From an uncultured Victivallales bacterium (GTDB taxonomy: Bacteria; Verrucomicrobiota; Lentisphaeria; Victivallales; UBA1829), in contig CALXMJ010000293.1 of the NCBI GenBank assembly GCA_944389445.1, positions 912-64,911 on the forward strand: 64,000 nt of DNA, given 5' to 3'. The stretch's first letter is position 1. Each line of letters opens with the position of its first letter. A model generated the notes under the pieces. It worked only from the letters and a program-made list of their open reading frames with translations. It was not told where the DNA came from and ran no database searches. This document shows, piece by piece, positions 3,501-36,634 of the stretch. Both the position numbers and the translations under genes were made by a program.

Positions 3501-4521
3501 CGGTAATTTCCAGCGGCAGATTGTTCCGGGCGCAGAAGCGTCCCGTTACTGTATAGTAGCGCAGTCCGGATTCAAATGAGGAGTTCTGAATCAGATTGTT
3601 GTCCGGGCTGTTGAAATCGGGTACGTGCAGAGCATCGTTTTCCAGGAAATGAATCCCTCCATAAGAGCCGCTGTTCTGCCGGGCGGAGGGCGGGAGAACT
3701 TTTCCGAAGTCCAGAGAGAAGGTCAGTTTTTTCTGTTTTTCGGCGAAGAAAAGGCGGAACAGGAAATCCTGTTTTTTGCTGACAAGCGCCTGCAATTTTC
3801 CCGGCAGGAAATCCGATATGCTAAGTTCTGCAAGAGGATCATTCGCGCCGATTGCCGCCGAATCAAACATTCTGTTCAATGTCAGGAACTGCGCCTTTCC
3901 AGGCGGAGGCGAGAGAGTTTCAATTTTGCGATCCTTCTTCCCGGTCATAAGGATTTTTCGCTCTTTGCAGACCATTGTATTGATTGTCATGCTGACATGG
4001 CCCGGCTGGAATCCGAAAGTTTCTCCTTCGGGAAGGTTATATTCCATTTCAAAAATCATCCGGTTTCCTTTTACGGTCAGGACCTGGCGGTAATCCGCAT
4101 ATCCGGCGGTTTCCGACCTTGATACATTGGAATGAATCGGGAATTTCATAGACCATGTATAGCGTTTTTTCTCCGGTTCGGAGAGAAAACGGCGGTCTAT
4201 GACTTTTTTGTCGCTGACGGGAAGCCATCGATTGAATCTGGAATGAAAAAACAGGTAGAAGTTGACCAGTTCCTGTCCGTTGCTCCGGACCCGGAACACG
4301 CCTTCCTCGTTGAACTCCAGTACCTTGCTTCCATAGGCGACTCTGTATTTTTCACAGCGGGGAGCCATCCGGACAGGAGAGACGTTCCGTGGCGCCGATC
4401 CGGCTGCGAACGGAACAGGTTGTGTGTATGGAATTTCAGCCGTCGTTTGCAGGAGCATGGAAAGTAAAAGCAGTACGGTTAATGATGTTTTCATTTTATT
4501 TTTCCTTGTTTGTGGATTCAT
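508..4521 (-). CDS. secreted multidomain glycoside-hydrolase-like protein with CBM9-like C-terminal module (1337 aa)
   Basis: N-terminal Sec-type signal ([23 protein letters not shown]). The central part has TIM-barrel glycosidase-like strings ([17 protein letters not shown]). The C-terminal ~170 aa are CBM9-like ([42 protein letters not shown]). ATGA overlaps at both ends (4518-4521 and 508-511). The GH family cannot be assigned by eye. Confidence 0.75.
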
Positions 4522-5276
4522 CGCGGGGTCCAGTTGTCCGTCATGAAAACGGTGGACCTGTGTGTTCTGACCGAGCCGTCATGATAAAGAAAATTTCCGG
4601 TACCCGCATGATTGAAAGCAGCGGAGTATTTCCGCTGGACTTCGCCTGTCGACGGGCGTGTATAAGCGGGCATGGCAAACCACTCCGGGGTTGACACAAC
4701 ATTGCTGTTGAGCGGATTCTTTTCAATCATGATGATGGTTCCCGAACGGATGGAACCATAGCGTTTCGGTTGACTTTGCACATGGGAATCGGAATCGCTT
4801 TCGAAATGAGAGAGCCGCCAGCCGATGGAATTTTTCTCCCGGGCTCCGGAATCGGTCGGATAATTGTATTTGACCGTGGGCGCGTAGGAAATGCAGATTC
4901 TTGCGGAGGAACAGTCGGTTCCATAGGCATTTTTGTTGACATCGGGGCATTCCATGTATTTTTTCAGTTTGTCCAGTTCCGCTGTTTTTGCCGCTGCATA
5001 GTCTTTGATGACCCCGAGAGCAAACCCCATGACATACTGCCATGAGTTGTTCCTTCCTTCGTGACGGACCGCCCAGAGATAGTCATCGTAATCCCCCGTG
5101 TAATTCATCGCAGCCAGGAACATCTGCCGCATGCTGTTTGTACAGGTGATTTTCCTTGCGACGGAACGGCTTTTCTGCAGAGCCGGAAGCAGCAGGGAAA
5201 TCAGAATCAGAATCACAGCAACAACAATCAGGAGCTCTATAAGAGTGAATTCTTTTTTAAAAAGGTTCCTTTTCAT
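4518..5276 (-). CDS. pseudopilin-like protein, prepilin-type N-terminal helix plus H-X9-DG C-terminus (DUF1559-type)
   Basis: N-terminus [37 protein letters not shown], followed by the CTNSMRQM block. C-terminal [12 protein letters not shown] is an exact H-X9-DG. AGGAG RBS 6 nt upstream of the ATG at 5276. Confidence 0.9.
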
Positions 5277-7814: not shown

Positions 7815-8756
7815 TTATTTCTCTCCTGCGGCGCGGATGGATTCGATCAGTTCCGTCATCCGGACTGCATCGGCGGCGGTCAGAGTATTTGCGCTTTTTC
7901 CGAGGACCGCATCGCGGAAATGTTCCAGTTCCTGAATGAAGGCGCTTTTCCCTTCGGACATATCCACTTCCACGACCCGGAATTGATCGGTGTGCATGAC
8001 AATCCTGTCCGGGCGTTCAATACGCATGTAACCATATTCCCCCAGAAGCGTGATGGTGAGATCCCGATAGCAGAAGCAGGTTTTTTCCGCATACATTCCC
8101 TGAAGCTGAGCCGTGACTCCGTCGCCGTAATCGACGATCGCGGCAAATCCATTCTCCTTTTTCCAGCCGAAGCGATGGTCGATTCTGCTGTAAAGAACTT
8201 TCCCGGGACTTCTCCCGGTCAGAAACGTGATGAGATCGAAATCGTGAACCGAGAGCTCATACATTGCCCCCACATCCTTGACCCAGGTCGACTCCGGGCG
8301 CGGATGATACATCTGCTGTTTAGTCGTTACGATGGAAACCAGCTCCCCGATTTCCGGAACCAGTTCTTTCGCCTTCCGGAAAATCGGTTCAAAACGCATT
8401 TTGAATCCGACTCCGAGTTGTTTTCCTTTTTCTTTGGCAAGACGTTCCAGTTCCCGTCCTTCCGCGACATTCATCGTCAGCGGTTTTTCGCAGAATACAT
8501 GGAATCCCCGTTCCAGAAGAGCTTTCACCACCGGATAATGTGCTGCGGGCGGTGTGACAACGCTGACCGCATCAAGGTCTGCCGACAGATCCTGAAGATT
8601 CGTCAGAGCTTCTGCTCCGCAGAGTTCCGCGACGCTTTTTGCCCGTTCCGCATTCAGATCCACCACCGCGGCAACGCTTACTCCGTCGATCGCACTCCAT
8701 GAATTCGCATGTGCCCGGCCGATTCCGCCGCAGCCGACAATTCCGACTTTGAACAT
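7815..8756 (-). CDS. Gfo/Idh/MocA family NAD(P)-dependent oxidoreductase
   Basis: MFKVGIVGCGGIGRAHA Rossmann N-terminus directly after GGAG-A7-ATG. EKPL motif (VFCEKPLTMN). The 50-codon upstream extension in the track (to 8906) is rejected. Confidence 0.9.
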   Translation of the reverse strand: MFKVGIVGCGGIGRAHANSWSAIDGVSVAAVVDLNAERAKSVAELCGAEALTNLQDLSADLDAVSVVTPPAAHYPVVKALLERGFHVFCEKPLTMNVAEGRELERLAKEKGKQLGVGFKMRFEPIFRKAKELVPEIGELVSIVTTKQQMYHPRPESTWVKDVGAMYELSVHDFDLITFLTGRSPGKVLYSRIDHRFGWKKENGFAAIVDYGDGVTAQLQGMYAEKTCFCYRDLTITLLGEYGYMRIERPDRIVMHTDQFRVVEVDMSEGKSAFIQELEHFRDAVLGKSANTLTAADAVRMTELIESIRAAGEK

Positions 8757-10177
8757 TTTTTTTCTCCTTTCTGATTCGGTTCCATATTCAGAACCGTGTA
8801 GTTTCGTTCCCATTCCGCCTTTTCTCCCGGAGCCAGAGTCACTTTCCGGAAGAACTCCGGCGAGATGACCCGTTCCGAACGGAACAGCGCCCGTCCGAGC
8901 TCCCATCCTTCCGATTCACTGATATGCAGAATTGTTTTCCCTTTCGCGACAGCTGTTCCATGCCGGGTGGTTTTCAGCGGAAACGCTTCCGCTTTTTTCC
9001 CGGGAGAAAAAACCGCATCCGGATAGACGATTGTCGCAGGGCTCAGAAAATTGTGTGCGTATTCCCTCGTCGAGAAGGGGTGCTTCCCGGTATTTTTCAG
9101 ACGATAGCGGATGGTCAGGACCGCTTCGGAAAGCGAAATTTCTTTTTCCAGAAAATAGGCAAAGCCCGATGGCGCGCTTCCGGACTGGCGGAAAACCGCT
9201 CTGTCGGCATGGAGTTCCGTTTCCCACGGGAAAAATTGAACGACACGGTAATTTTTCTGATGAAAATAAGAGGACCCTCTTTTCCGGAGAAGTCCCACTC
9301 CGATTTTCAAAAAGAGATTGCCCGGAGAGTCGTAATCCGGAACTTCAATGAACTCTTCCGCCTGTCCCGCGGCATCGTCGTGATTGCGCGGATCGTGTAC
9401 CTCCGGCGGCACATTCGATGTGAATCCCGGAAACGCGGTAATCATTCCGGCCGATTGAAAACGGCATCCCCTGTAAAATCCTTTTTCCGGATCGGGCAGA
9501 GCGATTTCTACTTTCCGCTCTCCGCTGGAAAGTACAGCCCGCGGCCAATCCGGATTCGCCGGATGCGGCGGTATATTCTCCAGAAAACGGACCCCGTGCA
9601 GACGCGTCGTTTCCATGACGGCGCTCCCGTTCTCCGGCAGAACAAGCACCGCCCGGGAAGGCAGGGAACGCATTTCCCACCAGGGAATCCGGATGAGGAA
9701 GGGTTCCTTTGCCGGAATTTCCGCAATGAGCTTGCCGTTCAGGTAAAATCCTGCTCTGCAATCCGCGGTAATCCGGAAAGCGAAACTGTGGCGTTCTTCA
9801 AAATCCGGTTCAAAGTGGAGAATCGTCATCCGTTTCCCCGTTTCGGGGGAGAGCGTTGCCGGGAATCCGAATCCTTTGCTTTGAACGAATTTTTCTTCAA
9901 ACGGGAACGTTTTCCGGTATTTGCCGGGGAGACGGGAAAAATTCCGTTCCGTCAGAATCCATTGAATCGTCTGCGGCGGTTTTCCGGGGAGCGGGATCTC
10001 CTTGCAGAACAGTTCCCTGTCGAAGGAAATATCCCTGCTGCCGTCCAGTCTGAGAATGTAAAAACCGGGTACATGAGGTTTGACCGTTCCGCGGAACGGT
10101 TCCTCTCCTCTGCGCAGCGCATCGAATCCGAACGAGCAGAGACAGAGGAGAAACTGGGCGGCAAGGAGGAATTTCAT
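8678..10177 (-). CDS. hypothetical secreted protein (499 aa)
   Basis: Signal peptide MKFLLAAQFLLCLCSFGFDA. ATGA overlap with the upstream gene at 10174-10177. The last 26 codons overlap the oxidoreductase start. No recognisable family. Confidence 0.65.
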   Translation of the reverse strand: MKFLLAAQFLLCLCSFGFDALRRGEEPFRGTVKPHVPGFYILRLDGSRDISFDRELFCKEIPLPGKPPQTIQWILTERNFSRLPGKYRKTFPFEEKFVQSKGFGFPATLSPETGKRMTILHFEPDFEERHSFAFRITADCRAGFYLNGKLIAEIPAKEPFLIRIPWWEMRSLPSRAVLVLPENGSAVMETTRLHGVRFLENIPPHPANPDWPRAVLSSGERKVEIALPDPEKGFYRGCRFQSAGMITAFPGFTSNVPPEVHDPRNHDDAAGQAEEFIEVPDYDSPGNLFLKIGVGLLRKRGSSYFHQKNYRVVQFFPWETELHADRAVFRQSGSAPSGFAYFLEKEISLSEAVLTIRYRLKNTGKHPFSTREYAHNFLSPATIVYPDAVFSPGKKAEAFPLKTTRHGTAVAKGKTILHISESEGWELGRALFRSERVISPEFFRKVTLAPGEKAEWERNYTVLNMEPNQKGEKKCSKSELSAAAESAGHMRIHGVRSTE

Positions 10178-13100
10178 TTCTTTTTCTTCCGGATTACCGC
10201 AATGCTTTCCTGTGAAACTGTGCGCGGGAAGCCGTTTTTAAGAGAGATGTTTTTCCCATCGGGACCGGTCAGCGATACGACTTCGTATCCTTCCGGAAGA
10301 GTGAGACGGAAATCGCTGACCCCGTGGAAGAAAAAGAGAGCTCCGCCGGTATCGGAGATCCAGCTTGTCCCGAACGGTGTCTCCTGGATGAAGGGCATTC
10401 CTGTCTCCTTCAGCGCGGCGTTGACAGCCGGAAGAAGACGGAGAATCCGTTCGAGCATTTTTATCTCACCCGGAACATATTCGAAATTCAGAACGAGAGC
10501 ATCCAGAGTCACCGGGAAGAAGGTGTCGTACATGCTTGTCCGGAAGAAGTCGATCTCGTAGTTTGAACCGTTCGGCTGGGCCGCATGAAGATAGAAGATT
10601 TCGCCCGGCTTGTAGGTGGGATAACGGTTCTTGAGGAAAATATAGCCATCGACAACCAGCGGATTCATTCCCTCGGTCACGATCGAAGCGCCCCGGTCGT
10701 AGAAGAAGCGGAAAATCTCCATCTGCGGCCAGAAGCCGATTCTGCTTTCCGGGGTGGCGAAATTGACCGTTCCCGATGCGGCTCCCGCCATATCGTACCA
10801 GACGGTTCCGACTCCCGCTCGGATCATTTTGTCCACCATTCCCAGATACCAGTTTTGGAAACCTTTGTTGTCCATGTCCGCAACATGGAAGTGATTGAAA
10901 TACCTGTACAGTTTTCCCGTTTCGTCCTTGAGATACCAGTCGGGATGCTCAATGACGGTCCTGGTTTTTTCCGGAGAGTGACAGCATGGTGTCCACGGAT
11001 ACGCCCTCATTCCGTTGTCTTTCACCAGTTTGTATGAGCTCATGAATTCCGGTGAGTCAAACTGTTCCATGGGACTCGGACAGTAGGGCAGGGAGAAGAA
11101 ATGGAATCCCGCTTTTCCCGCCGCTTTGACGATCTGTTCGATTTCATCGTGAGTGCAGGTGTTCCGATAGGTTGCGGTCGGCATGGCAGCCATCTCGCGG
11201 AATCCCGCCCGGGCGCGGAGATGTTTCCGCTGGAACTGGTACATTGCCATCCATGCGTTTGTCGTTCCTGCGGACGCCGGGCCGAGGGTCTGCCAGAACC
11301 AGGCGGTTTCAAGCGGCGCTTTTTTCCGTCCGAACAGGAATGTAACGTTTCCGCTGACGTCCTGAGCGCCTTTTCCCATCGAGTACTGCACATCAATGGG
11401 GAAGGGAGTTTCCGTAAATTCGGAATAGACGCCTTTTTTTCCTTCCAGCCAGGAGAAGGGCTGTCCGGCGGAAAAGAAGCCCCAGGAACGGGTGTCGATC
11501 GTCTCTGCTCCGGAGATGTCGAATTCCTTGTATCCGCGCGGGGACTGATAACAGGCAAAACGGCGGAGACGCGTTCCATCGACCCCGATCCGGAATTGAA
11601 GTTTCATCGTGGAAACCAGTTCCGGGGCACGTTTCAGAATCATGCGCTGGGCAAAGCCGTGGAAGGGAAGACCGTTCAGATTCAGGCTTCCGCTTTTGAA
11701 TTCCCACTCGAGCGCGGCTCCGCTGGGGCTTTCCCAGGAGAGAACGGCTGTTTTTCCGCCCCGGATTCCGGTCAGTTTCCATTGGAAGTTCGCGTTCCGG
11801 CTTTCCTGATTCATCCCAACTGCTTCGGCGGTCGCGAGGGAATCGACGGCGTTGCTTTTTTTCGGATAGAAGATTTCCGGAGGACGGAGATCGCGCAGGA
11901 CAGGACTCTCCGACCCGGGAAAACGAACTTCGAGCGTTTCGTTCCCAACGGTGATCCGAACCCCGTTCCCGAATATGATTTCTCTGCCTTTCACCGTTGC
12001 GGAGGAGTCGGAATCCTTCAGCGCAAGTACAGGCGGTTTCAAGGCGAGGGATGCCTGTTTCAGGGTGGTCGGCGGATAATCCCGCTGCGGTTCCTGGATG
12101 GTTTTTTCGGGCGAAAGTTTTGCTCCGGAGAGTTCCGCCGTCAGACCGGTCAGCAGAGCCGGTGTGTACGCCCAGTTGAAAAGCTGGCGCGCTGTCTGGT
12201 GACGGCTGTACTGGGCGTTCAGGAACAGGACTTTTCCTTTGCCGTAATTCCGGATGGCGGCATACACGCCAACCGGTTTCCCCTCTTTGTTCAGAATTCT
12301 GGAAAGTACTTTTGCATCGTTTTTTGCGGAGGCTTCCCGGTAATCAAGGAAGATTTCCCACTTTTCCGGCAGAAGGGAGAAGTTCGATCCGGCAGGACGT
12401 TCTGCGAAAAGACCGTTCGAACGGACGGTTTTTCCCGGTACGACAGGCAGCAGGTCTCCGAGTGTTTCCGGCACATGAATGGTGACAAACAGATATCCTC
12501 CGTTTTTGACAAAGACTTTGAGTTTTTCTATCCGTTCCGGCGTGAAGATCCGTTGCTGATTTGCCGCGGGAATCCCGTTGACCGCCACGATCGCATAGGT
12601 ATTGAGACGTTCAAATTCCGGTGTGATGTAATCCAGCGCTTTCGGTTCGACTTTATCGGTGGGCGTCTGTTTGATGCTTGCGCCGCCCTCTCCGGCAAGG
12701 TAAACGCTGTTCAGAACAGTAACATCGGCTCCCGCGTTGATGAGAAAGCGCGCAAAGGCATTGCCCACCCAGGGACGGCCGCCGCTGAGCGCCAGCATTT
12801 TCACTCCCCCTGCTTTGGATTTCGGACGCGGAAAGATACCTTCCAGTTTCCGCTCCAGTGCGCGGCGGTCCACTGCTTTCGGCGGATTGCCGGGTTGATA
12901 CGCGGAATCATCGGTCAGAACGATCCGGTCGATCCGGGAATAGTGTGAGTTAGCCTTGAGAAGAATGGAATTCTCACCTTTTTTCACATCGACCATGTCA
13001 GATGCTTTTTCCCAGCGCCAGCCGGGTTTTTCCCCTGATTTGAGTTTGGCATCGCCGAATGTCCCGACATTTTCCCCGTTGATCGAAATCTGTATTTTCC

Positions 13101-13350
13101 GGAAATTGCCCCCATGAGTCATGCTGCGGACCCAGAGGAACAGTTTCTGCTCTTTCGGCGAGGAGAATCTCTCCGATGCCTGCGCCCCGATTTTCGATCC
13201 GATCAGAAACGCTCCGCCGAATGTATCGCCATTCTGAACTTTCCACGCTCCGCGATCCGATATTTGTTCCGCTTCCAGTGCAATTTCCGCAGCGGAAAGA
13301 GTGAATACTCCCAATGCCGCACATAGAAAACCTGCCCGATGCCAATTCAT
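10174..13350 (-). CDS. secreted multidomain protein (1058 aa) with N-terminal beta-sandwich sugar-binding-like module and possible GATase1/ThuA-like middle domain
   Basis: Signal [22 protein letters not shown]. Residues ~22-160 (ALEAEQISDRGAWKV...LWVRS...ISINGE...WRWEKA...IVLTDD) are homologous to the N-terminus of the FAD oxidoreductase at 38020..39954. ATGA overlaps at both ends. Confidence 0.7.
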   Translation of the reverse strand: MNWHRAGFLCAALGVFTLSAAEIALEAEQISDRGAWKVQNGDTFGGAFLIGSKIGAQASERFSSPKEQKLFLWVRSMTHGGNFRKIQISINGENVGTFGDAKLKSGEKPGWRWEKASDMVDVKKGENSILLKANSHYSRIDRIVLTDDSAYQPGNPPKAVDRRALERKLEGIFPRPKSKAGGVKMLALSGGRPWVGNAFARFLINAGADVTVLNSVYLAGEGGASIKQTPTDKVEPKALDYITPEFERLNTYAIVAVNGIPAANQQRIFTPERIEKLKVFVKNGGYLFVTIHVPETLGDLLPVVPGKTVRSNGLFAERPAGSNFSLLPEKWEIFLDYREASAKNDAKVLSRILNKEGKPVGVYAAIRNYGKGKVLFLNAQYSRHQTARQLFNWAYTPALLTGLTAELSGAKLSPEKTIQEPQRDYPPTTLKQASLALKPPVLALKDSDSSATVKGREIIFGNGVRITVGNETLEVRFPGSESPVLRDLRPPEIFYPKKSNAVDSLATAEAVGMNQESRNANFQWKLTGIRGGKTAVLSWESPSGAALEWEFKSGSLNLNGLPFHGFAQRMILKRAPELVSTMKLQFRIGVDGTRLRRFACYQSPRGYKEFDISGAETIDTRSWGFFSAGQPFSWLEGKKGVYSEFTETPFPIDVQYSMGKGAQDVSGNVTFLFGRKKAPLETAWFWQTLGPASAGTTNAWMAMYQFQRKHLRARAGFREMAAMPTATYRNTCTHDEIEQIVKAAGKAGFHFFSLPYCPSPMEQFDSPEFMSSYKLVKDNGMRAYPWTPCCHSPEKTRTVIEHPDWYLKDETGKLYRYFNHFHVADMDNKGFQNWYLGMVDKMIRAGVGTVWYDMAGAASGTVNFATPESRIGFWPQMEIFRFFYDRGASIVTEGMNPLVVDGYIFLKNRYPTYKPGEIFYLHAAQPNGSNYEIDFFRTSMYDTFFPVTLDALVLNFEYVPGEIKMLERILRLLPAVNAALKETGMPFIQETPFGTSWISDTGGALFFFHGVSDFRLTLPEGYEVVSLTGPDGKNISLKNGFPRTVSQESIAVIRKKKK

Positions 13351-14375
13351 CTTAAGACTCCTTCTGCCGGTTCAACCAGCATTTTTCTGATTTGTTGAAT
13401 TTCCCTGTTGGAAACACCGCATTCCCGAAGAAAACAGACAGCCTTGCCGGATTCGGTTTTCGCATGGAATGAGTTCCATTTCTCCTGAAACGCTTCCCAT
13501 TTCATTCGGCTCCGTTCCTCGAATATGGCGAACGAGGTGATTTCGTAATCCCGGATCCGATCCGTTTTCGAGACGCCGAGAAGAGTTTCCAGAAGATAGA
13601 CAACCGTTCCGGTCCTGTCGGCGCCGCCCCAGCAGTGTAGATAGACCGGGTAAATCCTCGGATCCGCCAGAAAAGAAAACAGCCGTCCGCAACACCTCAT
13701 CTGATCCTTTGTCAGGATCTCCTCATACGACAGAAGCGGGAACGCAAATCGCCGGATTCCAGCCTTTTCCAGCGGAGAGCGGTATCCCTCCGGATTTTTA
13801 CGGAGATCCAGTTCCGTTTTGATATGAAGAAAATCCTTCAGGACGCGGATGCCCTCAGGACCGGTATTCATGTGATCGTCCAGTTCCGAACCGCGGAATA
13901 TCATATCCTGCCGGATGCGTCCGCCGCGAAGCGTTTTCCAGCCGCCGAGATCCCGGATGTTCGACAGTCCCGCGGCGGCAATCCAGCGGGGCGGCTGCGG
14001 AGAGGTGGAAAAAGTCGAGATCCCCGAAATCCCGTTTGCAGACCGAACCCGCCAGTAATAGGTCCTGCCCGGATTCAGATTCTGAATGGGGGCCGAGAGC
14101 CCCTCTTTCATCGGCCGGGAAATAAATTCGGAGAAATCCCTCGTCTTCGAAAGTTCCAGAGTGCCGGAAGATGCATTTCCCGGTATTCCGGCTCTGATCC
14201 GCAGCGGAAGCGGCGTGGAGAGATCCTGAATCCCCCGTTTCAAATCCTTCCAGTCTGCTTCTTTCTTCCGGAGCTTCAGGAATGCTTTGTGTTCTGGGCG
14301 CAGAAGTTCCACAAAAGTATTTGAAGATTCAATAATGGTTTCTTCCGGACAATTCACGGCCGCTCTCCTGGTCAC
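13347..14375 (-). CDS. protein-tyrosine-phosphatase-like CX5R phosphatase (Y_phosphatase3-like) with Fn3-like N-terminal region
   Basis: [10 protein letters not shown] is the HCX5R(S/T) P-loop, and NIRDLGGW is a family hallmark. [13 protein letters not shown] is an Fn3-like strand. No signal peptide. GTG start overlapping the upstream stop (GTGA at 14372-14375). Confidence 0.8.
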
Positions 14376-15181
14376 TCCTTCACTCCGAACCAGAGTTTTT
14401 TATGCCGGACTCCGTATCCCCCTCCGCCTGCCGATGCGACACGTTCGTTTCTCATCTCCGCATGTCCGTCTCCATGTCCCGCGCCCCATGTCCAGCCGGG
14501 ATGAACAGGAGATGTATGATCTTCCGAGCTGTTCTGCGAGTTGTTCTGGACTGAGATGTCGGCAAACAGAATCGTTTTGGCGGGAGATGTGCCATCCTGA
14601 CTGAGAGTTTTCAATTTTTTCGGAGGGACCGTTGTTCCTCCGAACAGACGGTCCAGATTCGGATGAGTGCTGTCTTCCGCTGTGAACTGATTGAGCTGGC
14701 ACCAGCGCATCTGTTCGTTGGTCCGATTCCTTTCAAAGTAGGTGCGCTTTCCGGGACACGACCAGATGTTGTTGAAATCATTTTTATAAGGATTTTTCGT
14801 GTAGGATCCGCGCAGATAAGCCTTGTCCAGAACCAGAATGATTCCTCGGTTTTTCGCGTCCCAGTTCGCAACGTCGTTGCCGACATACGGATGGGATTCC
14901 ATGGTGTAGTTGCAGAATGGCATCCATTCGTCTCCATCGGTGAAGTATTGCTGCATCGCCGTTCCGATCTGCTTCCAGTTGCTGAGACAAGTAACCGAGA
15001 ATGCCTTTTCCCGCGCCGAATTCAGCGCGGGAAGAAGTATCGCAGCAAGAATTGCAATTATAGCAATAACGACTAGAAGCTCTATCATTGTAAAAATGCA
15101 AGTATCTGTTTTTTCCCTTCCGGGTGGAGAGAATTTTTCCGGAAGCTTCCGGCTCCTGCTGATTTTTGTGACAGTATCCAT
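14372..15181 (-). CDS. pseudopilin-like protein, prepilin-type N-terminal helix (DUF1559-type)
   Basis: [31 protein letters not shown], then CLSNWKQIG. The C-terminal [14 protein letters not shown] is only an approximate H-X9/10-DG. Start placed at the ATG at 15181 (GGAGAG RBS 6 nt upstream). The track start at 15229 would overlap the isomerase stop by 11 nt. Confidence 0.85.
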
Positions 15182-15218
15182 TGCCTGCTCTCCATTTGCA
15201 AATGCGATTTTGTTCAGA

Positions 15219-16064
15219 TTAAAGTACATGATCCCTGGCGTATTCCAGATTATGTTTCATGCCGACTTCCGGTTCGGGGAGTTCTTTGGGGTACCAGTAC
15301 TTTTCATATTCATCACTGATGTATCCCGTGTAGCCGATGCGTTTGAGTTCGGCGAGGACCTCTTCCCAGGCAACCGTTCCTTCTCCCATCAGGCAGGAAG
15401 TTTTCTTGACCGGCAGACGGTTTTCAAGTTTCCAGTCCTTGATGTGAACGTGGAAGATGTAGCGTGCCGCACGCCGGACCGCCTCCGCCCCGAACTCGAC
15501 TCCGGCAAGTTCCACCCAGGCATAATCGAAGAGAATTCCCACGTTGTGCATGTTGACATCTTCCACCAGGCGGACAACATCCCGGATGCTCATGGTCAGC
15601 GAGCCGATATGAGTCTCAATGCAGATCCGCACGCCGAATTTTGCCGCGTATTCCGCCGTTTCCCGGATTCCTGTGACCGTACGGGTCCATACGTCGTTGA
15701 ACCAGACGCCCGGCTGGCTGTTCGGTTCCACTCCGCCATAAACTCGGACCATGGGACAGTCGAGAATCGAGGCAATTTCAATGACTCTTTTCAACTTAGC
15801 TATCACATCTTCCCGTTTTTCCAAATCGATAAAATTCTGATAATACGAGGTAAGGCAGGAGAATTCCATATCCGCATTCTTTGCTTCCCGATGGATGGCT
15901 TCGGCTTCCTCGTCCGTCAGGGTTTCGCTGTTGATCTGACCGTCCGGTGCGACACGGACCTCGATCCCGTCGTAGCCAATCGTCTTGAAGAGTTTGATGA
16001 CCTCGTGAATGTCGCGCCCGGGAGCGCCCATCGTGTGACCCGAAAATTTGATTCGGCTGTTCAT
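15219..16064 (-). CDS. sugar phosphate isomerase/epimerase (xylose-isomerase-like TIM barrel)
   Basis: Typical family strings: [27 protein letters not shown]. Start placed at the ATG at 16064 (MNSRIKF) with an AAGGA RBS. Confidence 0.85.
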
Positions 16065-16105
16065 GATTTTTCCTTTCCATATTGGATTATTCTGAGGGAA
16101 ATTTC

Positions 16106-17113
16106 TCACATGACCATGGAATTTCCCGAAATGGTTTCGGAAAGAACCTGTCGGCTTTGCGGGTGTTCACCGTTTTTCAGCTCCAGGCAAATCCGGATGG
16201 CTTCACGCGTCATCTCTTCAAGATGGGAATCCGTTGTCGTCAGTTCTTTTGCCAGAAGCGGTTCGATCATACTGTGACGGTCGTATGCGGCAATTCCTAC
16301 TTCCGAAGGAACCACGATCCCGTGCCGCAGCGCCTGCGCAAGAAGTTCCGCCGCCGGTTGATACTGACTCAGAAAACAGGCGGTGCGCCTGCCATGCAGT
16401 GTCGTCCATAAATATTCCGCATCCGGCGACAGAATCGAACGGGGCAGTTCCATTCGGACGATCTGTTCGCTTCCTGCGGCGGATTTCAACCCTTCCAGAT
16501 AACCTATCGTACGCATGCGTTCCAGACGGGACATTTCCGGATGTGTGACTACCAGATACCGGTCATAGTAATTCCGCGCGGCAACCTTTGACGCCAGACG
16601 GAATGCTGCATCCTCATCATCCCCGTAAACACAGGGAAAGCCGTTTACATTCCGGTTCAGAAATACAACATTATGGAATTTCTCATGATTCCTGATGCAG
16701 TAGGATTCGCTGTCCTCATTCGAACCCATCACCAGAACGGCATCGAATTTTTTACACTTCGATCCGCGCAGAACCTTGCGGAATTCCACGTTGCGGTACA
16801 TTTCATAAGAAATTTTCAGCTTATGGGTCCGGCACATTTCTTCCACCGCCGCGCTGACCCGCACCATAAAATCCGAAAACTGCGCATGCAGCCACGGCGT
16901 AAGCAAAAGGATGGACGCAATATCGTTTTTCTTCTCCGAAAGCAGGACCGCCGCCTGATCCACTGTGTAATTCAGCCGCTTTACCGTATCCAGAACTTTG
17001 GCAGCTGTTTTTGCCGAAATCCCGAAGGTGGACTGGCGGTTGTTCAGGACATAAGAGACCGTTGCTTTGGAAACCCCGCTCTCCCGGGCAACATCATCCA
17101 TCGTAATTTTCAT
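16106..17113 (-). CDS. LacI family transcriptional regulator
   Basis: N-terminal HTH MKITMDDVARESGVSKATVSYVLNN plus a periplasmic-binding-protein-like core. The alternative GTG start at 17140 cannot be excluded. Confidence 0.9.
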   Translation of the reverse strand: MKITMDDVARESGVSKATVSYVLNNRQSTFGISAKTAAKVLDTVKRLNYTVDQAAVLLSEKKNDIASILLLTPWLHAQFSDFMVRVSAAVEEMCRTHKLKISYEMYRNVEFRKVLRGSKCKKFDAVLVMGSNEDSESYCIRNHEKFHNVVFLNRNVNGFPCVYGDDEDAAFRLASKVAARNYYDRYLVVTHPEMSRLERMRTIGYLEGLKSAAGSEQIVRMELPRSILSPDAEYLWTTLHGRRTACFLSQYQPAAELLAQALRHGIVVPSEVGIAAYDRHSMIEPLLAKELTTTDSHLEEMTREAIRICLELKNGEHPQSRQVLSETISGNSMVM

Positions 17114-17160
17114 TGCTGCTTTTTCTCTTTTTTTGTTCACGTTAACCGGTTCTTGTTTAA

Positions 17161-17189
17161 ATTATAATCGATTTTCTCTCATTTGTCAA
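17161..17189 (-). promoter_or_regulatory. sigma70-type promoter TTGACA-N17-TATAAT for the LacI-led operon, with CG-centred near-palindrome in the spacer
   Basis: The minus strand reads TTGACAaatgagagaaaatcgatTATAAT, with perfect -35 and -10 hexamers and a 17-nt spacer. AATCGATT (17167-17174) abuts the -10 and could be a LacI-type operator half-site pair. Confidence 0.6.
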
Positions 17190-17769
17190 TAGGGGAAGTC
17201 AAAAAAAATATTATTTTTGCCGACAAAGATTTCAAAGGTCATTGCCTCAGACAGGAGGATAACGGTCCGCATGGAAGAAGAAAAGAGTTGTGTGGAATAT
17301 AACATCTTTATTGTAAATATCTTGTGAATCCTTTTCCGAATGCCCGCATCTGCCCGGAGCCCAAAACGGGGAGAAGCAAAGGAACTCCCCCGCGTGTTCT
17401 GCTCTTTCTGAGAAAACCGCCTTTCGTTTTTTCGGAACTTCCTGATTGCTTCCAGGGAGGGAGGAGGGATTGAGGTTCGCTCATTGTTCCTTGTCTGAAG
17501 ATTGTCCCATTGTAAAAATCCGGAAGGTGTTATGAAAAGAATCCTTGACCGCCGCTCAATTTTGATTATGATGCAGAATTTTGATTTGTATTCAGAATTT
17601 TCTTATGCTATTTTACTTCGCAGGAGAGGATCGGATGCGATGCCGCATCTGTTTTTCTGTCCATGATTCCGCTAGAGAAGATGCCAGCTGTTTTTTCGAT
17701 AAAACAGAAGCATTGATTTCTTCTCCGAGGAGAGATCGTTTCAATGTTCGAAAAACAAGGATTTTTCCC

Positions 17770-19548
17770 ATGAAATTCAGATTTTTCTTTCTCTTGATTT
17801 CCTACGCTGTTTTTTCCGGATTTTTTCTTGTCTCCGCGATTGCCGCGGATGCTTCGGGAGACCGTTTTGCATGGCTGGACATCAGCAGGATTTCAGATCG
17901 GTCCGATCTTGAAGCGGTCACTCTCGGGAAGGAATGGCAATTCGTACCGGGAAAACCCGGAAGCTCCTGGATGACTGCTTTTCAGAAGGGAATTCCATTT
18001 TCTTTAAACGGGTCGCTTGTCAATCTTGACACCTTGTCCAGTCAAAAATTCCCGCGGGGATCCGAGGCCGTGCTCTACAACCATTTTCATTCGGAACGTG
18101 ATGGAATCGCCCAGCTTGGAATCGGGTGCGACTGGTGGTTCGAAGTGTATTCCAACGGCGTTTTCTGTACTTCCACCATGAAATCCGGGAATGGTACCAA
18201 TGATTATTTACCGGGAAACAATCCTTTTTTTCTACCGGTCAGGAAAGGGGAAAATCTGCTGGCAGTCCGTGTTCGGCGCGGTTTAGAGAGCTGGAAGTTT
18301 GCCTGCGGAACCGTTCCATTTGTCATTCCGGAGCTGCCGCTGCTGCGCTATGGTCCATGGCTCGGAAATCCGGATACGGGAAAAATGAGTATCCGTTTCG
18401 TCACCTGCGGTGATATCGGGGCGGGCGTGGAGTTTCGCAAGCGGGGCGGAAGGGACTGGCAGATTTGCTGGGATCATTTTCATGGACAGATTCTCCGCCG
18501 GCCGTTTCATCGGCTCCATCTTTCCGGGCTGGAAGAAGGGGCCGAGTATGAATATCGGATTGTCATGCTTGATCCGCAGGCGCCGGAGAAACGTGTCTAT
18601 GCGAAAAACGGGAAAATCCATACTTTCCGGGTTCCGGACCGGCAGCGGAACGATTTCAGTTTCTTTTTCACCGCCGATCTGCAGTTTCCTTTTGCGCGTC
18701 AGAAACAGCTGCTGGGACTTCTGCTGAAAGCTGCGGATGCGTCTGATTGCGATTTCTATGTCCTGGGTGGTGATATCGGCAATGAGTTTTCCTCCGAAAA
18801 TCTTTTCCGCGGAGTGCTGACTCAGATTTCGCAGTTCAGCGGTGGCGATCGCCCGATTGTCATGCTGCGGGGAAACCATGAACTCCGTGGGAAAGAAGCG
18901 GATCGTTATCTTTATTATTTCGGAAATGAGGATGGCGTTTCGTATGGGATTTTCCGCTTCGGGGATACGGCATTTCTCCTTCTGGATTGCTGGGAGGATA
19001 AACCTGCAGAGAGTCCGGGAGCCATTTATGTAAAATACAATCTGGACACATTTTTCCTGGACAGGGAAAAAGAGTTTCTGAAAAAGGCCCTTGCCTCGGA
19101 AAAATGGACGACCGCGTCCCGCCGGATTGTGCTGGCGCACGGCGCACCTTACTCCACCTTTGATGCCTGCAGGTGGATGCCGTTCAATCTTCAGAAGCTC
19201 ACCGATCCTTATTTTGCAGGAAAGAATCCGAAATCCCGCCTGAACCTCTGGCTTGCCGGACATGCCCACCGTTATACCCGCAGCATTCCCGGCACGAATC
19301 TCCTCGCTGCCCCGCCCAATCCCCGGAAACCACACAAGGGCGGCAGAGAATATCTATATCCGGTTCTGACTGTGGCCGGGCCGGGCGGTCATACGTCCAT
19401 GCCGGTCTCCGCATTCCGCGTTGATGCCCGGGCGGGAAAACTGATCGTCAGCGCCTTCAGCCCCGATGGGAAATGTTTTGAAAAAATCGAAATCAGCAGT
19501 GACGGACGTATTGCCGAACTCATTTCTCTTCCCCATCATGAATTCTGA
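17770..19548 (+). CDS. secreted metallophosphoesterase, purple-acid-phosphatase-like
   Basis: Signal MKFRFFFLLISYAVFSGFFLVSAIAA. PAP-type Fn3 region (MSIRFVT...GAEYEYRIV). Calcineurin-like motifs: GGDIGNE, RGNHE, GHAHRY. Start moved from 17581 to the ATG at 17770. Confidence 0.85.
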   Translation: MKFRFFFLLISYAVFSGFFLVSAIAADASGDRFAWLDISRISDRSDLEAVTLGKEWQFVPGKPGSSWMTAFQKGIPFSLNGSLVNLDTLSSQKFPRGSEAVLYNHFHSERDGIAQLGIGCDWWFEVYSNGVFCTSTMKSGNGTNDYLPGNNPFFLPVRKGENLLAVRVRRGLESWKFACGTVPFVIPELPLLRYGPWLGNPDTGKMSIRFVTCGDIGAGVEFRKRGGRDWQICWDHFHGQILRRPFHRLHLSGLEEGAEYEYRIVMLDPQAPEKRVYAKNGKIHTFRVPDRQRNDFSFFFTADLQFPFARQKQLLGLLLKAADASDCDFYVLGGDIGNEFSSENLFRGVLTQISQFSGGDRPIVMLRGNHELRGKEADRYLYYFGNEDGVSYGIFRFGDTAFLLLDCWEDKPAESPGAIYVKYNLDTFFLDREKEFLKKALASEKWTTASRRIVLAHGAPYSTFDACRWMPFNLQKLTDPYFAGKNPKSRLNLWLAGHAHRYTRSIPGTNLLAAPPNPRKPHKGGREYLYPVLTVAGPGGHTSMPVSAFRVDARAGKLIVSAFSPDGKCFEKIEISSDGRIAELISLPHHEF

Positions 19549-20615: not shown

Positions 20616-20993
20616 GCTCCTTCCTTTCCTTCCTGTTTGCCCTGGAAATGTGTCTTTTTGCAGAATTTTCCCGTATCCGGTTCCGTATCCTGTCATCGTT
20701 CCGGCCGGAATACAGGGAAAATAATATAGCATCCGTTTTCCCTGTTTAAAGTTTTCCAAACTTTCTTTTCCTCTGTCGCAAGGGAATCCCGGACACTGCT
20801 GCCGGGGACTTTTTACGGGAATTCATCATTCATTCGATGTCGCTTTCTTTCCAGATCGCGGAAGCGTTTTCGGCTCTCCGGAGAACCGCTCGGGAAAATC
20901 CTCTTCTCCTGCGGATTCCCGCGACTTTTCCGCCGTTTGCGCGAAAAAGACTCTGTTTTGCAGGATTATCCACTTAAAACCTTTTTTTTCCTA

Positions 20994-21022
20994 TTGACAG
21001 AAAGAATGTTTTCGATCATAAT
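20994..21022 (+). promoter_or_regulatory. sigma70-type promoter TTGACA-N17-CATAAT upstream of the pseudopilin-GH5 operon
   Basis: TTGACAgaaagaatgttttcgatCATAAT, ~80 nt upstream of the ATG at 21105. Confidence 0.5.
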
Positions 21023-21104
21023 TATAGAGAAAAGAAGACGATTCCTTAATTTTACGGAATATCGGAAAACTGGAACATGGAAAAGCGGAAAGGATTCAAT
21101 CTCA

Positions 21105-21830
21105 ATGAAAACTTCTTCGAAGCTGACTGTTTTATCCACCTGGAACGGGAGATATGAATTTACAATGATAGAGCTTCTGGTTGTTGTTGCCGTGATTGCC
21201 ATTCTGGCTGCGCTGCTTCTTCCTGCTTTGCAGAAAGCACAACTTGCAGCATCCAGAACGCAGTGCATGAGCAATTTGAAACAGCTCGGGATGCTCGGGA
21301 CTCAATATCAGCATGATTTCAATGAATATCCCATGCCTCCGGTAAACAAGCATATAGGAGGGGATATTGAACTTTACAAGGACAGTTATCACTGGGATTT
21401 TTATTTTCAGACATATTATCTGAAAGACCGGTCGGGACGGTTTATTTTCAAGTGTCCGGGGGACAGCCGCCGGCCGACCAATTCCAATGCAGTTCTCCGC
21501 AGTTATGCCGCTCCCCGGGGATGGATTTACTGCAACGATGCTTTGATCCGTGTCAGTGAAGTGAAAACACCTTCCAAAGCGCTTTATCTGGGAGAAACAG
21601 ACAAAAACAATGCCGGTTTTCAAAACGCTGTTGTCGGACATTCCGGAAGCGATGCGGAAGTGGTCCTGAACAATGTGCAATGGCTCGGCAACAACCATGC
21701 GGACCCGAAACGAGGCATCGCAGCTGCTCTGGACGGGCATGCGGCAGCTTCTACCATCAATCTGACATGCGGAGGATTCAACACCTCCAGAGAGAATTTC
21801 AAACAACGAGTCATAAACTGGAGTTTCTGA
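21105..21830 (+). CDS. pseudopilin-like protein, prepilin-type N-terminal helix (DUF1559-type)
   Basis: [46 protein letters not shown], then CMSNLKQLG. The C-terminal [16 protein letters not shown] is an approximate H-X-DG motif. Confidence 0.85.
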
Positions 21831-30282: not shown

Positions 30283-30306
30283 ATGATAAGGAAAGGGAAA
30301 ATCATC

Positions 30307-31038
30307 ATGAAAAAAACACATTTTACACTGATAGAGCTCCTGATCGTAATTGCCATCATTGCGATCCTTGCCGGACTTCTCCTGCCAGCACTGACCTCTG
30401 CAAGGAACAAGGCGATTCAGACAAAATGTTCCGGAAACATGAAACAGCTTGGTATCGCTTATCAGCAGTATACAATGGACAACGATGACATCCTCTGTGT
30501 TTACACTTACACGACCTCCTCCGGATACAACATGCGCGGATTTCAGGATGTCGAGGGCGTGAACTGGCCGTGGATCATGCGCGACTATCTGGATATCAAA
30601 GGCGCGGAAGGCAGCAATCCTCCCGGAACCGCCTACTCCAAGCTGCCGAAGCGGAACCGGAACGGATTCCTGAAATGTCCCGGCAACCGGAATCAGCTTT
30701 TCCTGTTCGGTAATTTTCACTACAGCATGATGCAGAACTGCGTCGGTGGACGGGGAGCGGATTCCCCGAATAAAATCACTCAGTTCAAAAATGTCTCAAA
30801 ACGGATTTTCTTCGGAGAAGGATATGACAACTCTCATCCGGAATACGGCGGACTTTCCGGACTGGGCAACTGCAACGATTTCCAATATGCATGGCACTTG
30901 CACAATCAGGCGATCAACACAATTTACGGAGACGGCCATGTCGGACTCTTCAAGCGTACTGATTTCCTGCTGGAATACAATCTCTACGGTTCCGGCGGAT
31001 GGTATAAAAGCCCGGTCATCGGAACCGTCTGGAAATAA
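30307..31038 (+). CDS. pseudopilin-like protein, prepilin-type N-terminal helix plus H-X9-DG C-terminus (DUF1559-type)
   Basis: [36 protein letters not shown], then [21 protein letters not shown] is an exact H-X9-DG. Confidence 0.9.
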
Positions 31039-35851: not shown

Positions 35852-36595
35852 TTATTCATAAAGATTCCATGGATTCGTCTCATTCCAGTTGGTCCGTCCA
35901 AACGTTTTTGCTGCCGGTTTGTAATAAATCTGTTCGGGGATAATTCCGTCGACAGACCCGGTGTGGCCGTCAATAAAAAGCAGGTTGGCTCGTTTCAGAT
36001 GACGCGGATCAAGCACGGATTCCTCCGTTGGCCTGGAATAGAGGAGCGGATTCGGACGGAGATCTGTGGGACTGACTTTCTTCACAGAATCCCCTGCATA
36101 AATTTTTGTCGAAGGACTCTTGATCCGAGCCGCCTGCAGCATTCCCTTCGTTCCGATGTACGCATAGGAAATCATGGAAATTCCATACCCTATTTTTGCC
36201 CATGACCCATTCGGAGCCCCGTCATTTCCGTTCGGAAGCCCTTTGTTCCGGTTATAATAGCTCATCAAATCCGCTGTTGCCGGGAGATCCGGGCAGGTGA
36301 TCTGCTTCATGCTCAAATAGCGGTTCGTAAAGACAAAATAATTCCAGTAGAAAGCCTTCTGATAACCGAGGGGCGTTGTAAAATAACAGGGCATGAGCCG
36401 ATCTGCAAAATCCAGCTGATAGAAGGACGCTACATGTCCCAGCTGTTTCAGATTGCCGGTACAGTTTACGGCTCTGGCGCGCATACGGGCATTGTTCAGC
36501 GCCGGAAGCAGAAGAGATGCAAGTATTGCGATGATCGCGATCACAACAAGGAGCTCTATTAATGTAAAATTTTTTCCCCTGAATCGGCATTTCAT
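35852..36595 (-). CDS. pseudopilin-like protein, prepilin-type N-terminal helix plus H-X9-DG C-terminus (DUF1559-type)
   Basis: [40 protein letters not shown], then [21 protein letters not shown] is an exact H-X9-DG. Start placed at the ATG at 36595 (GGAGAA RBS); the track start at 36625 is a TTG. Confidence 0.9.
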
Positions 36596-36634
36596 AGTTG
36601 TCTTTCTCCATATTCTGTTTTTCAAAAGTTTTAT

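Follow-up and report, generated by a model that had tools for sequence, protein, structure and literature searches.

The DNA analysed here, 64,000 nucleotides (nt) from an uncultured gut bacterium of the Victivallales (Lentisphaerota; contig CALXMJ010000293.1; the whole stretch is called the window below), carries on its minus strand seven consecutive genes that begin with a lacI-type repressor gene and end with a gene for an oxidoreductase of the Gfo/Idh/MocA family (Gfo). We propose, with a probability of about 0.5, that these genes constitute a LacI-repressed glycan-utilization operon, in which a sugar would be released hydrolytically outside the cell and the freed sugar would then be oxidized and isomerized in the cytoplasm. 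Judged from comparison of related sequences, the operon is a functional unit. The earlier suggestion of a first-pass annotation, that a secreted enzyme and a pseudopilin are coupled to a cytoplasmic pair formed by Gfo and a triosephosphate isomerase (TIM)-barrel protein, is supported by a gene order that recurs in at least 12 loci and by a common promoter and operator. The operon and its control elements comprise the following features.

17161..17189, minus strand: sigma-70-type promoter TTGACA-N17-TATAAT, matching the consensus at 12 of 12 positions
17133..17147, minus strand: LacI-type operator GGTTAACGTGAACAA, with the 12-bp core palindrome GTT(A/C)ACGTGAAC and a central CG, just downstream of the -10 box
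16106..17113, minus strand: LacI-family repressor of about 335 amino acids (aa) (PF00356, 48 bits, and PF13377, 47 bits, both above cutoff)
15219..16064, minus strand: cytoplasmic xylose-isomerase-like TIM-barrel enzyme of 281 aa (PF01261, AP_endonuc_2, E = 4e-42)
14372..15181, minus strand: DUF1559-type pseudopilin, with its probable start at M17 (the longest open reading frame starts at 15229)
13347..14375, minus strand: cytoplasmic phosphatase with an FN3-like and a Y_phosphatase3 (CX5R) domain (PF13350, P-loop)
10174..13350, minus strand: secreted 1058-aa putative alpha-glycosidase (AlphaFold2, Foldseek, profile search)
8678..10177, minus strand: exported 499-aa protein with a C-terminal galactose-mutarotase-fold domain at about residues 210-465 (AlphaFold2, Foldseek)
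8678-8761: non-conserved read-through tail of the 499-aa protein (its last 27 codons)
7815..8756, minus strand: cytoplasmic Gfo/Idh/MocA NAD-dependent sugar dehydrogenase of 313 aa (PF01408, PF02894, PF22725)

All seven open reading frames (ORFs) are present on the minus strand in the order and with the families that had been claimed for them, lacI being first and Gfo last, and the Pfam and NCBIfam assignments hold.

When GTDB species genomes were scanned with the TIM-barrel protein as query, 45 loci were obtained (comparison loci are given below by L numbers). The Gfo gene adjoins the TIM-barrel gene in about 17 of these and lies in the same cluster, with other genes in between, in about 12 more. 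By their labels, the loci come from Lentisphaeria, from Oscillospiraceae and further Clostridia, and from Limnochordia, Spirochaetia, Gemmatimonadetes, and Planctomycetaceae. Adjacent pairs without any glycoside hydrolase (GH) gene (L014, L018, L019, L024, L026, L028, L036, L039, L043, L044, and L049) span Clostridia, Limnochordia, Spirochaetia, a metagenome-assembled genome (MAG) labelled Gemmatimonadetes, and some Lentisphaeria. The contexts of the pair in Clostridia, Limnochordia, and Spirochaetia, read for transporters or glycosidases that could point to the substrate, yielded only a LacI or GntR regulator and one ATP-binding cassette (ABC) solute-binding protein, and nothing diagnostic. 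The sole two-plus-two arrangement, TIM-Gfo-AraC-TIM2-Gfo2, was found in a clostridial locus (L026, 1083-6271).

The order LacI-TIM-(pseudopilin)-1058-aa homologue-Gfo was found in at least 12 Lentisphaeria loci (L002, L006-L009, L011, L013, L015-L017, L020, L038, and L041), in which the identity of the 1058-aa homologue to that of the window ranges from 26% to 89%; in the scan with the TIM-barrel protein, this homologue lay between or beside TIM and Gfo in L008, L009, L011, L013, L015-L017, L020, L038, and L041. All seven genes in unchanged order are found in the locus with an 89% identical homologue (L006), and six of the seven, with the phosphatase gene missing, in that with a 79% identical one (L007). 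A more distant locus (L002) has the order LacI-TIM-667-aa protein-phosphatase-pseudopilin-1058-aa homologue-SSF symporter-Gfo-GH42. Between the window and this locus, TIM is 78% and Gfo 67% identical, while the identity falls to 39% in the 1058-aa protein, 36% in the phosphatase, and 32% in the pseudopilin. Such a difference between the core pair (67-78%) and the secreted enzyme (39%) is the pattern expected if TIM and Gfo act on a common downstream product. Homologues of SSF, GH42, and the 667-aa protein are absent from the window. In another locus (L033), the order is LacI-Gfo-1088-aa protein (GH2_N/GH42-like)-pseudopilin-TIM. Homologues of the 1058-aa protein also occur in other contexts without TIM or Gfo (L001, L004, and L005), and a GH28 gene adjoins one of them (L001). 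On the simplest reading of these gene orders, LacI-TIM-Gfo would be the ancestral unit, which persists by itself in Clostridia and some Lentisphaeria, and inside which Lentisphaeria put secreted enzymes and a pseudopilin.

Three loci carry a secreted 939-aa protein with DUF4962 and Hepar_II_III_C domains after Gfo (L009, 15685-18507; L011, 6345-9164; L014, 11813-14632). With this heparinase II/III-like neighbour, the TIM-Gfo pair may serve polymers that contain uronic acids. In Termitidicoccus mucosus (CP109796.1; L057, 4430-13859), the order GH1-Gfo-mutarotase-like-SSF-2-hydroxyacid dehydrogenase-TIM-GHL6 was observed. We considered this cluster as an independent replicate of the operon and rejected it; because its Gfo and TIM are paralogues that are only about 23% identical, the cluster is an analogy and not an orthologue.

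The conserved control region upstream of lacI also supports a functional unit. The exact TTGACA-N17-TATAAT sequence occurs once in the 64-kb window and in none of 100 shuffles (0/100), and the same promoter precedes lacI in all 10 orthologous loci whose upstream regions were read, so that the claim of a consensus promoter stands. The operator region is likewise kept in every lacI upstream sequence read. Its core is exact in nine loci (L002, 3984-3995; L006, 6208-6219; L007, 7177-7188; L009, 8924-8935; L012, 437-448; L013, 8884-8895; L020, 1429-1440; L035, 964-975; L038, 8884-8895) and has one mismatch in three others (L015, L016, and L017), and the window holds one copy. The repressor has both the helix-turn-helix (HTH_LacI) and the Peripla_BP_3 domain of its family and its gene follows a palindromic operator at the promoter; we predict that it binds GTT(A/C)ACGTGAAC. 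The palindrome is a signature of a small regulon and could serve to find more targets of the repressor. The longest lacI ORF would start at GTG 17140, which we rejected because this codon sits within the conserved operator; ATG 17113 is taken as the start instead, and the product then begins with MKITMDDVA, as orthologues begin at the equivalent MK(T/I)T. Directly upstream of the promoter region lies a divergent gene (17581-19548, plus strand) for a 655-aa calcineurin-like metallophosphoesterase.

The first-pass annotation had described the operon as translationally coupled. The four overlaps on which this description rested are literally present (GTGA at 14372-14375, ATGA at 13347-13350, ATGA at 10174-10177, and 79 nt at 8678-8756), but only four of the six junctions overlap and the 79-nt overlap is not conserved. 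The lacI-TIM and TIM-pseudopilin junctions are gaps and not overlaps, because TIM starts at ATG 16064, where the alignment with its L002 orthologue begins, and the pseudopilin probably starts at M17 (15181), in agreement with the called genes in L006 and L007. The former gap is 41 nt long, and the latter is 37 nt long if the homology-supported M17 is used. Shine-Dalgarno-like GGAG elements lie upstream of most starts. Where the 499-aa gene meets Gfo, the sequence of relatives is GGAGAATAA(A)AA(C)ATG, with the stop just ahead of the Gfo ATG; for example, L006 reads ...GGAGAATAAAACATG and L007 ...GGAGAATAAAAATG, which places the stop codon 2-5 nt ahead of the Gfo start. The window reads GGAGAAAAAAAATG here, with a T-to-A change and a run of eight A (8757-8764). 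Through this change, the ancestral TAA stop was lost and 27 non-conserved residues were added to the 499-aa protein. In a 99% identical protein from another sample (P0018), the run has seven A and the tail is in a different frame and has 62 residues. The tract is thus a homopolymer that varies between strains and the tail is read-through, and we rejected the 79-nt overlap as a designed coupling device in favor of a lineage-specific stop loss at a variable poly-A tract.

The largest product of the operon, the 1058-aa protein, carries the proposal that a polymer is attacked outside the cell. It consists of a signal peptide (residues 1-20), a beta-sandwich resembling carbohydrate-binding module (CBM) family CBM35 (22-150), a GATase1-like alpha/beta domain (180-410), a beta-supersandwich (425-690), a (beta/alpha)8 barrel (700-985), and a C-terminal beta-sandwich. 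In the AlphaFold2 model, built on the alignment from the profile search (mean predicted local distance difference test score [pLDDT] of 83, predicted template-modeling score [pTM] of 0.75), the last three of these domains have the arrangement of the GH36/clan GH-D fold. In a Foldseek search against the PDB, the top 30 matches of the model were GH36 alpha-galactosidases and the Flavonifractor GalN-ase, followed by GH31 enzymes, at a probability of 1.0 and E = 1e-15 to 1e-10 (best 7.5e-16) with about 10% identity. By sequence, the protein falls outside GH36: no Pfam GH model matches at E <= 0.01, and the matches to GH36 chains in the PDB reach E of about 0.05 with phmmer and E = 1.5e-3 to 2.5e-3 with the family profile. 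The same profile matches the CBM35 modules 2w3j, 2vzp, and 2w87 at residues 46-146, the GATase1-like 2gk3 (domain PF07090) at 246-405, and GH114, GH36, GHL15, and GH31 barrels at 792-855.

The barrel match also points to candidate catalytic residues. In the profile alignment, the Asp of VWYD853 (motif VWYDM) pairs with the Asp at a strand end of GH114 (...VFMD), in a region that GH36 and GH31 also match; in the model, D853 directly follows the strand 849-852. Both D853 and E893 are invariant in the 1058-aa family and nearly invariant in 20 more distant relatives; D853 is the likely nucleophile, and E893 is a candidate acid/base. When the 20 distant relatives were compared with Pfam, GHL6 was matched by 13 (best E = 8e-10), Melibiase by four, GH66 by four, and GHL10 by two, while the 1058-aa protein of the window itself does not match GHL6 (PF14871). 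Because of its fold, the profile matches, the conserved D853 and E893, and the GHL6-matching relatives, we consider the protein to be probably a secreted, CBM-bearing, retaining alpha-glycosidase that represents a new branch, near GHL6, in the alpha-galactosidase superfamily. The family appears small: a word-indexed search of 5.8 billion proteins gave 17 homologues, the sole one with a source name being from Victivallaceae, and when 1.84 billion representative proteins were searched exhaustively with the profile, 68 relatives emerged at E <= 1e-30; about 30 of these cover at least about 80% of the profile. In L005 (8249-9851), a 908-aa homologue has no CBM35-like domain of its own, and three tandem genes upstream of it each encode this domain by itself (about 170 aa); similar stand-alone copies are found between the TIM and Gfo genes of L027, L030, and L040.

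The 499-aa protein was described earlier, together with the 1058-aa protein, as one of two secreted giants. Each has an N-terminal signal-like hydrophobic segment, as judged from sequence alone, but only the 1058-aa protein is large. The Pfam and Foldseek comparisons that the first-pass annotation recommended for this pair gave no Pfam GH match for the 1058-aa protein and no Pfam match for the 499-aa protein, but structure revealed a GH36/GH31 fold in one and a mutarotase fold in the other. The 499-aa protein has no sequence match in the PDB either; its C-terminal domain is modelled by AlphaFold2 at a pLDDT of 80-98, and Foldseek aligns it with aldose 1-epimerases (3nre, 3dcd, 3mwx, and 1snz; E = 2e-7 to 1e-5). 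H375 is invariant in its family, N376 and E441 are nearly so, and the C-terminal 260 or so residues also occur in proteins of about 300 aa, with named sources in Fimbriiglobus (Planctomycetota), Termitidicoccus (Verrucomicrobiota), and Marinifilum (Bacteroidota). On the strength of the model, the protein is an exported mutarotase-fold protein, predicted to be an enzyme or a sugar binder. The 667-aa protein that takes its place in L002 (5945-7948) was considered as a homologue and rejected, as comparison shows no homology between the two. This 667-aa protein also occurs in L008, L010, L016, L020, L022, L029, and L041 (39-91% identity among them); it lacks an obvious signal peptide and matches nothing in Pfam or, by sequence, in the PDB.

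The pseudopilin meets the prepilin model TIGR02532 (20.9 against a cutoff of 16.3) and has the cleavage motif with Glu at +5 followed by a hydrophobic helix. Its Pfam scores lie just under the cutoffs (N_methyl, 18.0 against 21.2; DUF1559, 19.5 against 23.3), and it matches GspG weakly. It is one of five pseudopilin genes in the window (4518-5276, minus; 14372-15181, minus; 20937-21830, plus; 30283-31038, plus; 35852-36625, minus), each of which adjoins a regulator gene (AraC, LacI, or GntR) and a gene for a large secreted protein or carbohydrate-active enzyme (CAZyme): a 1337-aa CBM9 protein, the 1058-aa protein, a 512-aa GH5 protein, a 990-aa CBM9 protein, and a 1501-aa protein without Pfam match. 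Because the window holds five such modules, we regard the pairing with a pseudopilin as a habit of the lineage. A literature search found no paper describing a pseudopilin-CAZyme pairing or an operon of this type in Victivallales or Lentisphaerae.

The phosphatase belongs to Y_phosphatase3 (PF13350, 100.6 bits against a cutoff of 22.2, E = 2e-28), with an intact Cys-X5-Arg P-loop, and also matches Y_phosphatase2 (PF03162, E = 3.5e-8). It had been taken as a hint of a phosphorylated glycan, a suggestion that is not supported: the sequence has no signal peptide, more than 890 homologues occur in unrelated contexts, and most versions of the operon, L007 among them, lack the gene. Intact copies are found in the window, L002, and L016; that in the L006 assembly is frameshifted within the P-loop, and an intact, 80% identical protein exists (P0065). 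The homologues are about 325-345 aa long and their named sources are MAGs of Clostridia/Ruminococcaceae, with Lentisphaeria represented by L002, L005, and L016. Their neighbors (PHP_C, dUTPase, and threonyl-tRNA synthetase genes) have no carbohydrate link. We conclude that the phosphatase is an accessory passenger, unable to act on an extracellular phosphorylated glycan. Homologues adjoin a protein with a PHP/PHP_C domain in two Clostridia/Ruminococcaceae loci (L053, 5278-7032; L055, 1613-3340) and in a Victivallaceae locus (L005, 3023-5103), which may be a conserved partnership apart from the operon.

The two enzymes of the core look active, because the residues expected of each are intact. 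In the TIM barrel, which is 65-81% identical across Lentisphaeria and Clostridia, the putative metal and catalytic residues E150, D180, H207, and E252 are invariant, and Gfo has the EKP motif and the catalytic His in ELSVHDFD. Among NCBIfam models, Gfo scores highest with IolG (TIGR04380, 134 bits against a cutoff of 355, E = 5e-39), followed by UDP-GlcNAc 3-dehydrogenase (129 against 450). It falls far under the cutoffs of all three models for 3-dehydrogenases of glycosides or levoglucosan, and so outside these families: levoglucosan dehydrogenase LevoglcsnDh (55 against 650), glycoside 3-dehydrogenase BT_2158_fam (39 against 750), and disaccharide 3-dehydrogenase BT_2159_fam (20 against 650). 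Against the PDB, its profile scores 115 bits with IolG (4hkt), 108 with 7bvj, which we take to be a GnnA-like enzyme, and 94 with DgpA2. By these scores, Gfo is equidistant from several sugar and cyclitol dehydrogenases. The TIM-barrel profile scores highest with Art22 (94 bits), followed by MJ1311 (77), 3tva and AsbF (73), UlaE (57), and IolI (53.5); ketose 3-epimerases (about 52), IolE (48), the 3-keto-glucoside 4-epimerase YcjR (45), DgpB/C (about 40), and 8qrz/8qvc (27-40), presumably lyases of the AL/BT type, come lower. In NCBIfam, the TIM barrel matches IolO with 61 bits (cutoff 300) and IolE with 47 (cutoff 290). The cutoffs of IolG, IolE, and IolO are thus all missed, and no other iol genes were found in the operon or its relatives. 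Among the seven genes there is also no hydratase partner (DUF1080 or a second TIM barrel) and no second oxidoreductase.

From these features we infer a direction of flow, a kind of substrate, and a chemistry. The LacI repressor would bind the palindrome at the transcription start and control the core, an old two-enzyme module of TIM and Gfo. Between the core genes lies an exported set, consisting of the putative alpha-glycosidase, its DUF1559-type pseudopilin partner, and the mutarotase-fold protein that would bind or anomerize sugar; an optional cytoplasmic phosphatase of the protein tyrosine phosphatase (PTP) type is also inserted there. Outside the cell, the glycosidase would hydrolyze a polymer or glycoconjugate and so free a sugar or small glycoside. 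A transporter encoded elsewhere would import the product, which would then lift the repression by LacI; in some relatives, the operon includes an SSF symporter gene. In the cytoplasm, Gfo would oxidize (or reduce) the product at a secondary hydroxyl, and the TIM barrel would isomerize, epimerize, or dehydrate the keto-sugar, which would enter central metabolism. Several observations weigh against this proposal. No enzyme of the operon attains the curated cutoff of any functionally defined family, and no transporter is encoded in the operon of the window. The 1058-aa protein, being about 10% identical to any solved glycosidase, could instead act as a lyase or a transglycosylase, or serve for binding. 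Finally, the different secreted enzymes bracketed by TIM and Gfo fit a broad-specificity glycoside-cleaving pair as well as a pair that acts on monosaccharides.

Such a glycoside-cleaving pair is the mechanism favored by the first-pass annotation, and we consider it rather unlikely. It holds that the secreted enzyme only trims the polymer and that the imported oligosaccharide or glycoside is cleaved non-hydrolytically in the cytoplasm: Gfo would oxidize C3, TIM would carry out a 1,2-elimination (with hydration), and Gfo-NADH would reduce the 3-keto sugar back, a scheme known from the DgpA/DgpBC, LgdA/LgdB, and AL/BT clusters. A single dehydrogenase, LgdA or DgpA, does both the oxidation and the final reduction in known systems. 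The two folds that this chemistry needs are present and tightly linked in many phyla, and in the PDB, DgpA-type enzymes score comparatively well with the Gfo profile (94 bits). The levoglucosan pathway, with its oxidation, elimination, hydration, and reduction, provides a precedent (PMC7676230). The broad specificity of the known glycoside pathway would explain why one pair is found with different secreted enzymes, and the two TIM and two Gfo genes of the clostridial locus L026 resemble the Gram-positive four-gene cluster (10.1101/2024.03.25.586180). On the other side stand the scores: Gfo misses the curated models of this chemistry (39 against 750, 20 against 650, and 55 against 650 bits), and the TIM profile ranks IolI, UlaE, ketose 3-epimerases, and AsbF over YcjR, DgpB/C, and 8qrz/8qvc. 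Moreover, the operon lacks DUF1080, a second TIM-barrel hydratase, a second oxidoreductase, and a transporter, and already encodes an enzyme of glycosidase fold. An extended version joins the same chemistry to the exported proteins. In it, the operon would be a Lentisphaeria-specific polysaccharide-utilization locus in which the pseudopilin exports or displays a giant enzyme of a new alpha-glycosidase family, and the LacI-TIM-Gfo bracket would supply a minimal, broad-specificity, cytoplasmic pair for 3-keto, non-Koshland glycoside cleavage that finishes the delivered oligosaccharide. This combination we consider unlikely.

Two further alternatives keep the hydrolytic release and assign the cytoplasmic pair to other substrates. 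TIM and Gfo might be a non-orthologous counterpart of KduI and KduD that acts on 4-deoxy-hexosulose-uronate or a related keto-sugar acid, with the GH36-fold enzyme stripping alpha-linked residues from the same uronic-acid polymer. The lyase-like 939-aa protein after Gfo (L009, L011, and L014), the GH28 gene beside the homologue in L001, and the matches of the N-terminal CBM to the CBM35 entries 2w3j, 2vzp, 2w87, and 2w46, which we take to be the uronic-acid-binding CBM35 group, point in this direction. These CBM matches are weak, however (E = 1e-3 to 0.09), and the 1058-aa family has Arg at the position of the ligand-binding Asn. With no lyase, KdgK, or KdgA in the operon of the window, and no link to KduI, KduD, or uronate pathways found in NCBIfam and PDB profile searches, this alternative seems improbable. 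We judge quite improbable a cyclitol route, in which Gfo would be an inositol dehydrogenase and TIM an inosose isomerase or dehydratase (as IolG with IolI/IolE), inositol being freed from galactosyl-cyclitols by the alpha-galactosidase-fold enzyme and from inositol phosphates by the phosphatase. IolG is indeed the best curated and PDB match of Gfo, TIM has IolO and IolE among its top NCBIfam matches and scores 53.5 bits with IolI in the PDB, and the phosphatase matches PF03162, whose group of PTP-like families includes inositol-pyrophosphate phosphatases (Siw14 and the plant PFA-DSP type). These scores nevertheless lie far under the equivalog cutoffs (IolG, 134 against 355; IolE, 47 against 290; IolO, 61 against 300), the other iol genes were not found in the operon or its relatives, most operon versions lack the phosphatase, and a 1058-aa enzyme that is secreted and carries a CBM points to a polymeric substrate and not to small galactosyl-cyclitols. 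That the genes are mere neighbors, the Gfo/TIM pair having an unrelated housekeeping role, is very improbable. Homologues of the 1058-aa protein without TIM or Gfo (L001, L004, and L005) and the many genomes with TIM-Gfo alone would fit such independence, but TIM and Gfo enclose the secreted genes, under a single conserved promoter and operator, in at least 12 loci despite 26-39% identity of the 1058-aa homologue, and stop and start codons overlap.

Victivallales and other Lentisphaerota degrade glycans in animal guts and are common there, yet they have hardly been studied. Modules of a regulator, a pseudopilin, and a giant secreted protein abound in their genomes; this operon is a tractable example, having a defined promoter and operator and a cytoplasmic pair conserved across phyla. 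The 1058-aa protein, a confidently modelled and unclassified member of the alpha-galactosidase superfamily, could seed a new CAZy family. If the pair carries out a two-enzyme 3-keto cleavage, non-hydrolytic chemistry reaches a new phylum and the cytoplasm; if it acts on a free sugar instead, as we propose, the operon is of the usual catabolic kind, apart from its new glycosidase family. Four elements appear new, namely the GH family, the conserved operator, the bracket of TIM and Gfo around a secreted enzyme and a pseudopilin, and the cross-phylum TIM-Gfo pair, and a literature search found no paper describing them.

By comparison of sequences, the operon resembles a LacI-repressed catabolic operon or polysaccharide-utilization locus and is outside the characterized 3-keto systems, the iol pathway, and GH36. 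With the 3-keto systems for C-glycosides (DgpA/DgpB-C), levoglucosan (LgdA/LgdB1/B2/C), and glycosides (AL1-4/BT2156-2160), it shares the pairing of a Gfo/Idh/MocA enzyme with an AP_endonuc_2 TIM barrel in a carbohydrate cluster. The levoglucosan route comprises four enzymes (PMC7676230), and the known 3-keto glycoside clusters encode two oxidoreductases, a TIM-barrel lyase, and a DUF1080 lyase/hydratase, which in Bacteroidota are mostly predicted to be periplasmic; of the four AL enzymes, three have signal peptides and a predicted periplasmic location, and AL4 is cytosolic (10.1101/2024.03.25.586180). The window differs in having one oxidoreductase and one TIM barrel, both cytoplasmic and without Sec or Tat signals, no DUF1080, and an added hydrolase-fold enzyme. 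With IolG and IolI/IolE, the operon shares the best-scoring characterized relative of Gfo and several relatives of TIM (IolI, IolE, and IolO), and it differs by its scores under the equivalog thresholds, the absence of the rest of the iol pathway, and the linked secreted glycosidase.

The exported proteins show a similar mixture of likeness and difference. GH36, GH27, and GH31 (clan GH-D), GH114, and GHL6, GHL10, and GHL15 have the three-domain catalytic build of the 1058-aa protein, whose invariant D853 aligns with the strand-end Asp of GH114 and which differs from them by its additional CBM35-like and GATase1-like (PF07090) domains and by the lack of a Pfam GH match. The pseudopilin shares with the DUF1559 or "H-X9-DG" prepilin-like proteins of Planctomycetota and Verrucomicrobiota, and with GspG, the prepilin cleavage/methylation helix with Glu5, along with a short N-terminal DUF1559 match; from GspG of type II secretion it differs in lying outside any gsp operon and in being one of five copies in 64 kb. 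The closest resemblance in regulation is to LacI-repressed operons such as lac, gal, fru/Cra, and kdg of B. subtilis, with which the operon shares an HTH domain joined to a periplasmic-binding-protein-like effector domain, a repressor gene in first position, and a palindrome with central CG over the transcription start. Here, the operator is the operon's own, GTT(A/C)ACGTGAAC, and the predicted regulon mixes cytoplasmic enzymes, exported proteins, and a pseudopilin.

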